From Eledone cirrhosa (lineage: Eukaryota), in NCBI GenBank assembly GCA_964016885.1, contig OZ024743.1:203360001-203424000 (forward strand): a DNA stretch of 64,000 bases, read 5' to 3'. Position numbers and translations under genes: made by a program. Below the pieces are notes generated by a model. The model worked only from the letters and a program-made list of their open reading frames with translations, did not search any database and was not told the origin of the DNA. Within the stretch, counting starts at the first letter, position 1, and each line of letters starts with the position of its first letter. Of the stretch, positions 42,025 through 50,824 are shown piece after piece.

Positions 42025-43029
42025 GATAAATCTACCAAGAGTTTACGGTAGTGTCCAATCCGTATGAAGAACTCAATGTATTCCGGATATCATGGAAAGA
42101 AGAGATGTAATGAAAAATCACTTTCGGTGAAAGATAAACGGTATACAGAGTCAAGATAGAATATTAAACAAATAATGAATAAAACAATGAAACAGTTCCT
42201 TATATTAAACAAAAAAAGTTCATTATTTAACGATCGTTTCTAGGATATATATGTGTTAGAATTGGCATGCATATTCAACAGATCTATGTACAAAATTATA
42301 CAAAATTATACAAAATTATACAAACTATCAAGATTAAATATACATACCAAACACACATATACGCCGTCTTCAGAAATAATGAAATATATTTATTGATAAT
42401 AACAACAATTCAAAATTTCAGGTCCGTTTGGGAACAAAATTGACCAATGAAAATACAAAAGGTTTTATGCAGTTTGGCGTGTGTATATACATGTAACTAC
42501 CCCGTACACATATTTATACAAAGATGTATGCTCAACATGCATACGCATGCCAAAAAGATGCATGCAAATACAAAATTTCAAGGTTAATGTCTCTGTAAGT
42601 TTATAATGCACAGATAAGATGCGTATAGACACATAAATATGAAATAAGTGTATACACATATTCTCATACTCACACATATCCGTACACTCACACACACGCG
42701 CGCGTATATGCATAAACATACACATAATTACGAACATACATACACACACACACCCCCACACACATATATATATGTGGATATAATATTATCATAAGCACAT
42801 GGATATTAATTCACTCACATAAACACTGCCACACACATTTAGATCAAGATACAGAAATTAGGTGGGAGGGGGGGAGAGGTCAGTATTCAACGGTTTGGGC
42901 AGACTGCTTATTTATAGATGTATCTATAAACTAAGAAATAAAAAATAAAAATTAAAAAGGAAAGAAAAGAAAAAGAAAAAAGAAAAAAGAAATATATCAA
43001 GAAAATATATATATATATATATATACATA

Positions 43030-43069
<40 letters not shown>

Positions 43070-43157
43070 CACACATCTACACTTAGAACACACATACACA
43101 CACATATATAAACATATACATATACACACATACACACATATACACACATACATATAA

Positions 43158-43188
<31 letters not shown>

Positions 43189-43460
43189 TACACATATAAT
43201 CACACATACATATATAGACACACATATATATACACATACACGCACATATACATACACATACATACTTATATACATACAGATATACACATACATACCTATA
43301 TATACACACAAATACATACAGACATACATACATACACACAAATACTTACGCATCCATATATCGGTATATACATACAAACACCACTACACTCTCACACAAC
43401 ACAGACATACAAAGAAAAAGGTATATACCTATACACATATACACATACAAATAGAGATAC

Positions 43461-43492
<32 letters not shown>

Positions 43493-43703
43493 ATATATAT
43501 ATATATACATACACATATACACACATATATATACATACACATACATACATGTATTCACACATACATATACATACATACACACATACACACATACATATAT
43601 AGTCATACACACACATACACCTACACGAACATACACATACACATATATAAAGATATATATACACACACACACATACACACACACACATATATATAAAAAA
43701 TAA

Positions 43704-43758
<55 letters not shown>

Positions 43759-44311
43759 CACATATACATAGACATATATGTACATACATACACATACATA
43801 CATACATATACACACATATATATATATATATATACACACATAGACACATACATACATACACACACAACATACATACACACACATATATACTCATACATAG
43901 ACATAGATATATATTCATACATACATACGCACTTACATATACTCATATATACAAATACATACGCATCCATATATGCGTATATACATACAAACACCACTAC
44001 ACTCTCACACAACTCAGACATACAAAGAAAAAGGTATATACATATACATATATACACACATTAATAGAGATACATATACACATATATATATATATACACA
44101 TACATTTATATATATACACCCACACACACATACAACCATAAACACACATATAAACACACACATACACACATATATACATACATATATATACACACACACA
44201 AAAAAAAAACACACATACACATATATATTTTTTTACACATATATATACATATATATACATATACACACCCTCACATATACACACATACACATAAGTTATA
44301 TTATAATAATA

Positions 44312-44348
<37 letters not shown>

Positions 44349-44383
44349 CGAATATAGACATATATACACACATAGATATACAC

Positions 44384-44414
<31 letters not shown>

Positions 44415-44585
44415 GACTCACATATATATGTGCGCACACGTACATATATACACATACACACATATACACATAAACATATACATGTGCATACATGTACATA
44501 CACACATATAGCCACATAGATACGAAGATAGACATATATATAGAGAGACATACATATATATACACATATATATATACACATACAT

Positions 44586-44628
<43 letters not shown>

Positions 44629-45422
44629 TACACGCCCACACACATATACACATATACACATATATATATATATACATATACACATATATATACACATGCA
44701 TATATACACATATATATATACATACACACATATATATACACACAATCTTACATTCTTATTTGCATGCGCATATATGTATTTTTATATTCAGATATAAATA
44801 CGCAAACATATATAGACCTACCTACATATATATTCATACATACACGCTTACAAACACAGATGATAATAGTATGGGGGAAAGGGGGGGGGGGTTGGAGAAG
44901 GGGATTATAGTAAATATATGTTTCAAGAAACATAGAATATTATCTGTATCTGGATCCCAATATATGTTTTTACATAGTTTCAGTGTTAGGAAATACAAGA
45001 AATAAGGCAAAATTATGCATTTCAAAATAAGTATACCATTAATTATATGTTAACTAAACTAAAGATAGTTAACATATTGATTTCTAAGGTGTAAATTAGT
45101 TAGGTTTATAATATTTGAAGCAGAATTTTGAAGTTAAATAGTAGTAGAGTATTAATTATAGTATAACTAAATTAAAGTTATTAACGTTATGGTATCAATA
45201 TTAGGAAATGAATTTAGTAATAGGGAAAAAACAAATAAAGTATTACATCGGTAGTAGAATATAAATTATAGGTTAACTAAATTAAAAATTATATATTAAT
45301 TTCTATAGTATATGTTAATTAGGTATATAATAAATAAAACAGATATTGTATTTTATCAATAGCAGAATATAATTATATGCAAATAGAAATCAAAATTAAT
45401 ACATATACATATACATATACAT

Positions 45423-45505
<83 letters not shown>

Positions 45506-47002: not shown

Positions 47003-47494
47003 TAACATTATTTTAGAAATTAATTTAATTTAAATGTTAGTTAACCTATAAATTTAATTTAATTAAAATTCTACTACAGATGAGAATATAAAATATTGTG
47101 TAATCATAAATTGTGAAAAACCTTTAAATATTACTAATATATACTTAGTAATTTAATTTATAGATTAATTTTAATTTATTTAAACCTTTTATTAAAATTC
47201 CTTTACAGATAAAATATAACAAAATATCGTGTATCCAATGACAGAGAAATAATTTTTAGTATTATAGACCTAATTAATATACATTTTAGAAATATATTTA
47301 TAATTTGGTTTTAAATTTAGTCAACCTAAAAATTTAATTTAATTGGCTTAAAATTAGTATCCTTATACAGACGGATTGCAGAGTGTCATGTAATCATAGA
47401 ATGGGATGTGTTTTGGATGTATACCTAGTTAATATATTCTTTGCAATTTTTGAAAAAATATGTATATGTATGTATGTATATGTATGTGTATGTA

Positions 47495-47557
<63 letters not shown>

Positions 47558-48551
47558 ATGTATATGTATATGTATATGTATTAATTTTGATTTCTATTTG
47601 CATATAATTATATTCTGCTATTGATAAAATACAACATCTGTTTTATTTATTATATACCTAATTAACATATACTATAGAAATTAATATATAATTTTTAATT
47701 TAGTTAACCTATAATTTATATTCTACTACCGATGTAATACTTTATTTGTTTTTTCCCTATTACTAAATTCATTTCCTAATATTGATACCATGACGTTAAT
47801 AACTTTAATTTAGTTATACTATAATTAATACTCTACTACTATTTAACTTCAAAATTCTGCTTCAAATATTATAAACCTAACTAATTTACACCTTAGAAAT
47901 CAATATGTTAACTATCTTTAGTTTAGTTAACATATAATTAATGGTATACTTATTTTGAAATGCATAATTTTGCCTTATTTCTTGTATTTCCTAACACTGA
48001 AACTATGTAAAAACATATATTGGGATCCAGATACAGATAATATTCTATGTTTCTTGAAACATATATTTACTATAATCCCCTTCTCCAACCCCCCCCCCCC
48101 TTTCCCCCATACTATTATCATCTGTGTTTGTAAGCGTGTATGTATGAATATATATGTAGGTAGGTCTATATATGTTTGGGTATTTATATCTGAATATAAA
48201 AATACATATATGCGCATGCAAATAAGAATGTAAGATTGTGTGTATATATATGTGTGTATGTATATATATATGTGTATATATGCATGTGTATATATATGTG
48301 TATATGTATATATATATATATGTGTATATGTGTATATGTGTGTGGGCGTGTATGTGTGTGTGTATATATATATATATGTGTGTATGTATGTGTATATATA
48401 TATGTGTATATATATGTATGTCTCTCTATATATATGTCTATCTTCGTATCTATGTGGCTATATGTGTGTATGTACATGTATGCACATGTATATGTTTATG
48501 TGTATATGTGTGTATGTGTATATATGTACGTGTGCGCACATATATATGTGA

Positions 48552-48585
<34 letters not shown>

Positions 48586-48620
48586 GTGTATATCTATGTG
48601 TGTATATATGTCTATATTCG

Positions 48621-48661
<41 letters not shown>

Positions 48662-49218
48662 TATTATTATAATATAACTTATGTGTATGTGTGTATATGT
48701 GAGGGTGTGTATATGTATATATATGTATATATATGTGTAAAAAAATATATATGTGTATGTGTGTTTTTTTTTTTTGTGTGTGTGTATATATATGTATGTA
48801 TATATGTGTGTATGTGTGTGTTTATATGTGTGTTTATGGTTGTATGTGTGTGTGGGTGTATATATATAAATGTATGTGTATATATATATATATATGTGTA
48901 TATGTATCTCTATTAATGTGTGTATATATGTATATGTATATACCTTTTTCTTTGTATGTCTGAGTTGTGTGAGAGTGTAGTGGTGTTTGTATGTATATAC
49001 GCATATATGGATGCGTATGTATTTGTATATATGAGTATATGTAAGTGCGTATGTATGTATGAATATATATCTATGTCTATGTATGAGTATATATGTGTGT
49101 GTATGTATGTTGTGTGTGTATGTATGTATGTGTCTATGTGTGTATATATATATATATATATGTGTGTATATGTATGTATGTATGTGTATGTATGTACATA
49201 TATGTCTATGTATATGTG

Positions 49219-49271
<53 letters not shown>

Positions 49272-49788
49272 TTATTTTTTATATATATGTGTGTGTGTGT
49301 ATGTGTGTGTGTGTATATATATCTTTATATATGTGTATGTGTATGTTCGTGTAGGTGTATGTGTGTGTATGACTATATATGTATGTGTGTATGTGTGTAT
49401 GTATGTATATGTATGTGTGAATACATGTATGTATGTGTATGTATATATATGTGTGTATATGTGTATGTATATATATATATATATATGTGTATATATATAT
49501 ATATATGTATATGTATCTCTATTTGTATGTGTATATGTGTATAGGTATATACCTTTTTCTTTGTATGTCTGTGTTGTGTGAGAGTGTAGTGGTGTTTGTA
49601 TGTATATACCGATATATGGATGCGTAAGTATTTGTGTGTATGTATGTATGTATGTCTGTATGTATTTGTGTGTATATATAGGTATGTATGTGTATATCTG
49701 TATGTATATAAGTATGTATGTGTATGTATATGTGCGTGTATGTGTATATATATGTGTGTCTATATATGTATGTGTGATTATATGTGTA

Positions 49789-49821
<33 letters not shown>

Positions 49822-49909
49822 TTATATGTATGTGTGTATATGTGTGTATGTGTGTATATGTATATGTTTATATATGTGTGTGTATGTGTGTTCTAAGTGT
49901 AGATGTGTG

Positions 49910-49949
<40 letters not shown>

Positions 49950-50596
49950 TATGTATATATATATATATATATATTTTCTTGATATATTTCTTTTTTCTTT
50001 TTTCTTTTTCTTTTCTTTCCTTTTTAATTTTTATTTTTTATTTCTTAGTTTATAGATACATCTATAAATAAGCAGTCTGCCCAAACCGTTGAATACTGAC
50101 CTCTCCCCCCCCTCCCACCTAATTTCTGTATCTTGATCTAAATGTGTGTGGCAGTGTTTATGTGAGTGAATTAATATCCATGTGCTTATGATAATATTAT
50201 ATCCACATATATATATGTGTGTGGGGGTGTGTGTGTGTATGTATGTTCGTAATTATGTGTATGTTTATGCATATACGCGCGCGTGTGTGTGAGTGTACGG
50301 ATATGTGTGAGTATGAGAATATGTGTATACACTTATTTCATATTTATGTGTCTATACGCATCTTATCTGTGCATTATAAACTTACAGAGACATTAACCTT
50401 GAAATTTTGTATTTGCATGCATCTTTTTGGCATGCGTATGCATGTTGAGCATACATCTTTGTATAAATATGTGTACGGGGTAGTTACATGTATATACACA
50501 CGCCAAACTGCATAAAACCTTTTGTATTTTCATTGGTCAATTTTGTTCCCAAACGGACCTGAAATTTTGAATTGTTGTTATTATCAATAAATATAT

Positions 50597-50751
50597 TTCA
50601 TTATTTCTGAAGACGGCGTATATGTGTGTTTGGTATGTATATTTAATCTTGATAGTTTGTATAATTTTGTATAATTTTGTACATAGATCTGTTGAATATG
50701 CATGCCAATTCTAACACATATATATCCTAGAAACGATCGTTAAATAATGAA
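50597..50751 (+). ncRNA. Hammerhead ribozyme with ~115-nt stem II (mirror copy at 42219-42383, minus strand)
   Basis: 10-bp stem I TTCATTATTT/AAATAATGAA; CTGAAGA; long hairpin with G.U pairs; GAAA; palindromic CGATCG; cleavage triplet GUU. Confidence 0.85.
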
Positions 50752-50824
50752 CTTTTTTTGTTTAATATAAGGAACTGTTTCATTGTTTTATTCATTATTT
50801 GTTTAATATTTTATATATATATAT

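Follow-up and report, generated by a model that had tools for sequence, protein, structure and literature searches.

The window analysed here, 64,000 nt of Eledone cirrhosa DNA (assembly GCA_964016885.1, contig OZ024743.1, positions 203,360,001 to 203,424,000 of the forward strand, numbered below from its first letter), contains a palindrome spanning 8,659 nt that is an insertion of a Penelope-like element (PLE). The unusual feature of this element is the region between the stop codon of its open reading frame (ORF) and its hammerhead motif, which is about tenfold longer than in relatives and about half of which is TA/TG repeat. The palindrome is long because this 3' region is long, and each copy of the element brings nearly 2 kb of TA/TG repeat with it. 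The likely explanation, in our view, is one recent insertion of a high-copy family of Hydra-type PLEs with a stop-to-hammerhead region of about 3.6 kb, twin-primed from a single source.

Local alignment delimited an inverted pair of arms of 4,113 nt (42156-46268) and 4,083 nt (46732-50814), separated by a spacer of 463 nt. A first-pass annotation, made from the sequence without database searches, had proposed arms of about 4.1 kb around a spacer of PLE coding sequence, and both proposals were borne out: the spacer lies in a frame that remains open to 47002 and matches a profile of related ORFs with an E-value of 1.9e-72. Self-comparison identified this as the sole 4.1-kb inverted pair in the window.

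The 3' region and its copies in the family

In the right copy, 3,605 nt separate the stop codon (47000-47002) from the hammerhead core located by a motif scan, in agreement with the annotated distance of about 3.6 kb. The region had also been described as filled with microsatellites; TA/TG repeats are indeed present, but “filled” overstates their extent, as alternating purine-pyrimidine runs (12 or more) cover 1,660 of the 3,604 nt between the stop codon and the core. Decayed tandem copies of the last ~120 nt of the ORF extend over 46949-47950 (forward strand), with starts at about 46949, 47093, 47224, 47605 and 47861 and a pairwise identity of 69-77%; the first of these units scored 79 against 47582-48000, the maximum in 200 shuffles being 46. 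These ORF-derived units flank, on both sides, the first internal microsatellite, a (TATG)n/(TA)n tract of 124 nt (47458-47581, forward strand) that is 20 nt longer in the left arm. The segment referred to hereafter as island 2 (47582-48231, forward strand) consists of ORF-derived units and then a non-repetitive stretch reaching the large microsatellite, a compound TA/TG block of 1,744 nt (48232-49975, forward strand). This block has a single orientation throughout (G 370, C 55, skew 0.74) and contains an internal duplication at an offset of 609, with 115 of 125 core positions identical (score 425, shuffle maximum 226). It is followed, upstream of the hammerhead, by island 3 (49976-50596, forward strand; ~620 nt), which is mostly non-repetitive and TG/TA-tinged, and TG/TA-rich sequence grades from the large block into both islands. 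No homology beyond chance was detected between 47330-47457 and 47950-48231 (68 of 100 shuffles scored as high), and in none of the seven palindrome segments (7/7) was a non-simple 16-mer shared with the rest of the 64-kb window.

The motif scan and folding identified a type I hammerhead motif in the right copy (50597-50751, forward strand; core at 50607), with a 10-bp stem I, a CUGAAGA core, a stem II hairpin of 116 nt with 10-nt units at its tip, and a minimal stem III. Cleavage is predicted to occur after 50741. The folding z-score was -5.06, none of 200 shuffles being as good, and the search of Rfam with the predicted hammerhead gave no match at the gathering score. The left copy (approximately 42239-42383, reverse strand; core at 42373) has a stem II of 126 nt, with one extra 10-nt unit. 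The motif scan found no exact hammerhead core between the stop codon and 50607.

Related loci provided a baseline for these distances. A hammerhead follows the stop codon in six of 21 such loci, at 163, 201, 217, 220, 242 and 404 nt, and a further 10 have less than 400 nt beyond the stop codon or no stop codon in view. The 27 Hydra families described by Craig et al. (2021; PMC8557442, consulted in part, as were the other papers cited here) are 1,080-3,045 nt in total, with a stem II of 3-7 bp. By contrast, the 3' non-coding region of the palindrome element alone comprises 3,808-3,972 nt, against a clade size generally below 3 kb, a descriptive rather than diagnostic trait, and its stem II comprises 116 nt.

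We then considered contigs from four of 21 matching sequencing runs (X1, X4, X5 and X6), aligned to 47556-48290; 11 small-share runs and three reduced-representation raw-read runs were left out. Run X1 is possibly the window's own source and, as such, not independent. X4 and X5, which come from one study, represent two other organisms, and X6 is a second sample of the first of these. No RNA run was present among the 21 matching runs, a result that has no bearing on expression. Island 2 was represented by 525 contigs in X1, 23 in X4, 26 in X5 and 27 in X6. Identities of the X1 contigs were at least 99% for 139, 95-99% for 134, 90-95% for 200 and below 90% for 52; one contig was 100% identical and had a depth of 3,427, with others beside it at 7-12. 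If contigs with depths of 7-12 are single loci, the X1 depth would correspond to hundreds of copies of island 2, the summed depth not being itself a copy number. One X4 contig (record 14) extends from 47828, in the ORF-derived units, as far as 48231; in it, 65 different letters take the place of 73. A loose end in X4 resembling the end of the ORF before 47860 was not counted as linkage, as it may be an ORF end misplaced on a homologous unit.

According to these contigs, island 2 belongs to the family and is present at high copy number in three organisms, right to the point where the large microsatellite begins. The 3' region is thus a part of the family to position 48231, and local capture of island 2, which the first-pass annotation had proposed to check through genome-wide copies of 47960-48230, is refuted. 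Beyond this point, we suggest that members of the family extend across a TA/TG block, whatever its length, to the hammerhead of the palindrome, because no exact core precedes 50607 and Hydra elements normally have one. The 3' region would have grown by tandem additions of the ORF end, slippage and segmental duplication within the TA/TG block.

Several observations weigh against this reading. Contig coverage excludes the repeat ends (47556-47605 and 48232-48290), a gap that does not indicate absence of these sequences, and hence no contig crosses any microsatellite; the contig evidence relates to island 2 only. The full 1.74-kb block may be limited to a subfamily, because its internal duplication is 92% identical, a value near the spread of the family (most contigs at 90-99%). 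Between islands 2 and 3, homology did not exceed chance (a score as high was reached by 23 of 100 shuffles). The baseline of 163-404 nt consists of six loci, and in another five of the 21, the motif scan found no hammerhead in the 466-1,738 nt that follow the stop codon. Finally, comparison with 19 long relatives did not link the tail to the ORF of the palindrome.

Alternatively, the source may have been chimeric. In that case, the family would end at about 48231, or with a short repeat, and the source would have read through a compound microsatellite of the host into a neighbouring Hydra-type hammerhead end, the resulting long RNA then being copied. A precedent is provided by the captured spacers of 0.9-1.5 kb in Pen1 of Adineta (PMC3846280); ends of TA-targeted PLEs cluster in the window, with one adjoining the right end of the palindrome; continuity across the 1,744-nt block is unread by the contigs; and stem II and the tail differ from those of relatives. 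However, a chimeric source would require a high-copy family with no hammerhead in the 1.2 kb past its stop codon, contrary to the rule that members of the Hydra clade have canonical hammerheads (PMC8557442). The single orientation of the block over 1,744 nt and the grading of TG/TA-rich sequence into both islands also argue against it, and we regard a chimeric source as unlikely.

Arms, ends and origin of the palindrome

The alignment of the two arms comprised 4,060 matches, seven mismatches (five internal, the other two no more than 4 nt from an arm end) and 13 indels, of which one is a 10-nt unit and the remaining 12 lie in simple runs; identity at aligned sites was 99.8%. A tandem repeat scan gave 3.6 versus 2.6 copies of CAAAATTATA in the two arms. 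The single-nucleotide differences, the differences in repeat length and the three versus two copies reported initially were thus all recovered.

The left arm (annotated at 42160-46268, reverse strand) is the inverted, more 5'-truncated copy, and contains the end of the endonuclease, the whole 3' region and the hammerhead. The longer copy consists of the right arm (46732-50810, forward strand) and the spacer (46269-46731, forward strand), which is present in this copy only and encodes the end of the reverse transcriptase (RT) thumb, a CxCX5C linker and the start of a GIY-YIG-type endonuclease. The outer end of the left arm extends 138 nt farther than that of the right arm, as a one-sided tail (42022-42159, reverse strand), so that the arms end 207 and 69 nt past the predicted cleavage site. 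TA repeats abut both outer ends: an (AT)n tract on the left (41870-42021; Tandem Repeats Finder, period 2, 76 copies, 94% matches) and a (TA)n/(GATA)n tract on the right (50811-50863). The flanks beyond are unrelated to each other and not duplicated. A/T microhomology is present at the inversion junction (46268/46269).

Each arm has a private derived change: an in-frame stop codon at about 46132 occurs in the left arm only, and position 47792 is G in the right arm and A in the left arm and in nearly all the contig depth. Position 47799 is A in both arms, and T in 76% of the X1 depth and in all the X4, X5 and X6 depth. This rare allele, common to both arms, indicates that a single source gave rise to both.

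The private changes, the unique, in-frame spacer of 463 nt and the one-sided tail also bear on whether the palindrome is an artefact of assembly or of a folded-back read. No spanning read was seen, some of the homopolymer indels may be read errors, and repeat-rich PLE structures are difficult to assemble (PMC8557442), but these features argue against an artefact, which is highly improbable, as the first-pass annotation had already argued from the differences between the arms. We attach scarcely more weight to a later duplication of a single PLE copy at the DNA level, by fold-back or template-switch inversion, in which the microsatellites would have been copied by replication. The 99.8% identity of the arms and the microhomology at the junction are consistent with such an event. 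Against it, 138 nt of the left arm are absent from the right arm, the outer ends are element ends lying in TA runs with flanks that are not duplicated, and the same layout is found in two relatives (L010 and L018).

A single insertion event would account for the palindrome as follows. The endonuclease would have cut a (TA)n tract, and reverse transcription would have begun twice on RNA of one source locus, once 69 nt and once 207 nt beyond the point of cleavage by the hammerhead. Each copy would have crossed the whole 3' region with its microsatellites, stopping inside the ORF at 46269 and at about 46732, respectively, and the two truncated 5' ends would then have been joined head-to-head in A/T-rich sequence. 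In a purified Poseidon-type PLE, the endonuclease cuts both strands of AT-rich DNA, and the tail is explained by the RT starting at two adjacent internal sites of the RNA (PMC11167929). We infer twin priming as the origin of the two arms; self-priming on an antisense template, as proposed for PLEs (PMC3846280), could have generated them instead. The mirror shape itself is the ordinary layout of PLEs, in which an inverted, 5'-truncated copy typically adjoins the 5' end and one of the two ends carries a tail; such an inverted copy is listed for the Hydra member Penelope-13_HM (PMC8557442). The palindrome is real but not special in its form, and the window contains nine more inverted stretches. 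In metagenome contigs, inverted ORF copies were observed on the 5' side of relatives L010 (1-259/446-702) and L018 (358-465/734-841).

The tail is longer, at 138 nt, than the 30-40 nt reported for PLEs (PMC8557442) or the ~60 nt in related loci. These loci share the pattern of two different ends seen in the palindrome, in agreement with twin priming: the distances from cleavage site to end are 45 nt (L018) versus 109 nt (L014), and 34 nt (L019) versus 95 and 99 nt (L008 and L015). The tail of the palindrome is probably the 5' non-coding sequence of the next unit, obtained by read-through past the hammerhead; in related locus L001, the first methionine codon lies 194 nt after the hammerhead core. 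The possibility that the tail encodes the N-terminus of the ORF was rejected, as no significant tblastn or profile match to the 19 long relatives was obtained. At its outer end (42022-42035), immediately next to the TA run, the tail forms a perfect hairpin (6-bp stem, 2-nt loop) that may mark the outer RT start site.

Clade assignment of the coding sequence

The ORF list, the relatives and the motifs identify 46269-47002 (forward strand) as the C-terminal 240-odd codons of a Hydra-type PLE ORF, the spacer and the first 271 nt of the right arm forming a single open frame that ends at 47002. The fragment aligns to positions 475-703 of the 706-position profile, built from 19 long relatives; 6,573 relatives were retrieved at E≤0.001, the best being 62% identical, and a Pfam search of the spacer ORF returned no family. 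RT motifs are present in the long relatives, the RT core having been lost from the palindrome copy through 5' truncation. No full-length copy and no direct pseudo-long terminal repeat (pLTR) were found within the 64-kb window.

The endonuclease is C-terminal in this ORF and is followed by the stop codon. The CxCX5C linker corresponds to C102-C104-C110 and is present in its strict form in 103 of 153 relatives. The endonuclease has CxxC before the conserved E and CxH after the conserved N, as do 144 and 140 of the 153 relatives, respectively. The Hydra clade lacks the CCHH motif; in the ORF of the palindrome, two cysteine residues lie within the GIY-YIG-like core, neither of them in an invariant or nearly invariant column of 19 sequences. 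In the N-terminal part, where Hydra elements have RWK and DKT rather than DKG and which is lost from the palindrome copy, relatives of at least 690 amino acids contain RW[KR] (11 of 16) and DKT (13 of 16), with DKG in none of the 16.

The CxCX5C linker and the CxxC and CxH motifs point to the Hydra clade, which includes Hydra-1_Obim and Penelope-13_HM (Craig et al. 2021; PMC8557442). The features in common are the C-terminal GIY-YIG-type endonuclease, the CxCX5C linker, CxxC and CxH around the conserved E and N, a type I hammerhead with a minimal stem III, (TA)n targets and an inverted, 5'-truncated copy. On visual comparison, two of the relatives, L014 and L018, have a hammerhead region similar to that of Hydra-1_aMil, and the Hydra-1_Obim consensus, compared by eye and unaligned, represents a family different from that of the palindrome element. 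An initial label of Neptune (or Naiad) was dropped after the linker and endonuclease motifs had been tested. The CX2-5CxxC linker of Neptune/Nematis is absent from the ORF and present in only eight of 153 relatives, and none of the 16 long relatives has DKG; Naiad/Chlamys elements have an N-terminal endonuclease and no canonical hammerhead, whereas the endonuclease of the palindrome ORF is C-terminal.

Neighbouring elements and microsatellite transport

The arms of the nine further inverted stretches are 93-99% identical, and most of these stretches end in TA runs; hammerhead cores were found in three of them and PLE ORF remnants in one. Eight are short (11400-11750, 14701-15074, 33557-33941, 38022-39096, 41468-41771, 50817-51271, 52718-52835 and 58797-59706) and are probably head-to-head 3' ends of PLEs, one adjoining the right end of the palindrome; the cores lie in 11400-11750 (both arms), 38022-39096 and 50817-51271. 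A second large PLE palindrome (55389-58744) has arms of ~965 nt (94.5%) and a spacer of 1,325 nt with RVT_1 and GIY-YIG matches. Two further PLEs, truncated and matching the palindrome element in type, lie tail to tail at 15203-15562 (forward strand) and 16344-17420 (reverse strand); the first is followed by ~450 nt of AT-rich sequence past its stop codon, in which the motif scan found no hammerhead. A GC-rich PLE-like ORF (5787-7895, forward strand) with DKG and a weak RVT_1 match belongs to a clade different from that of the palindrome element. The window also contains a pair of long interspersed elements (LINEs; 17600-23702 and 27459-33520), 98.7% identical over 6.1 kb and both adjoining (AAT)n, with ORF1 and an endonuclease-RT-zinc finger ORF2 that is open for ~1,140 amino acids in the first. 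A minisatellite (1490-2156) with a 72-nt unit (9.3 copies, 94% matches) is composed of GA/GT repeats, and a dispersed repeat of ~185 nt, similar in size to short interspersed elements, has six copies that are 80-93% alike (2889-3071, 4043-4226, 12795-12982, 36605-36755, 51701-51885 and 53016-53213).

The carriage of microsatellites by PLEs has already been reported. In penaeid shrimp, recent Penelope copies move internal simple sequence repeats (SSRs) that then change in length, a proposed route of SSR expansion (Yuan et al. 2021; PMC7878876), and the palindrome element likewise transports internal microsatellites. The consulted part of the shrimp paper gives no clade, no position relative to a stop codon or hammerhead and no link to the target, and leaves the mechanism of SSR carriage open; shrimp Penelope consensus sequences are up to 7.6 kb long, lengths given without anatomy in the part of the source consulted (PMC3124438). 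In snakes, CR1-L3 and Rex LINEs seed microsatellites, raising genome-wide content (PMC6050309); the repeat is the 3' tail of these LINEs, whereas the palindrome element holds kilobases of repeat internally, ahead of its 3' signal. In Pen1_Av of Adineta vaga, too, a long spacer separates the ORF from the 3' end (the 3' pLTR in that element), but the Pen1 spacers of 0.9-1.5 kb are unrelated between copies and consist of captured host DNA (Arkhipova et al. 2013; PMC3846280), whereas at least the first 1.2 kb in the palindrome element is family sequence, derived in part from the end of the ORF. A preprint (bioRxiv 10.64898/2026.07.22.740005) and an octopus repeat annotation (PMC13282606) served as context only. 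The literature covered contained no account of a Hydra-type PLE whose 3' region is rich in microsatellites and several kilobases long; most subscription papers were missing from it, as were Repbase/Dfam and the supplements of PMC13282606, in which this family may be present. The finding here is the 3' region of a high-copy family, about tenfold longer than in relatives and half microsatellite.

The insertion duplicated its microsatellites, as initially claimed: 3,393 of the 9,403 alternating-run bases of the window lie inside the palindrome, which thus accounts for 36% of these bases in 14% of the window length. The first-pass annotation had further proposed a positive feedback in which the element multiplies the sequence class into which it inserts. 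The insertion did add microsatellite, but arm alignment revealed no nested insertion in the internal repeats of either arm, and the feedback step is therefore hypothetical.

The two arms, which differ in start point and in truncation point although they have one source, support the view that inverted PLE copies arise by twin priming at the two RT start sites, and the 4-kb arms show that the enzyme copied through kilobases of TA/TG repeat. The arms also constitute a dated pair for studies of slippage, with 12 repeat-length changes versus five internal substitutions, some of which may be RT or read errors. Repeat finders break up elements of this type at their microsatellites and so report an ORF fragment, islands of unknown nature and simple repeats as separate items; in repeat-rich genomes, some “host” microsatellite may therefore be transposon sequence. 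Only tentatively do we propose that a high-copy, recently active, (TA)n-targeting family carries, downstream of its stop codon and ahead of its 3' priming signal, ~1.9 kb of TA/TG repeat, makes its own targets and accounts for a measurable share of the compound microsatellites of its host. If this were true, copying from the 3' end would mean that most 5'-truncated copies deliver microsatellite without the ORF and that inverted insertions deliver it twice, and the family would provide a position-resolved answer to the question of how transposable elements carry SSRs.

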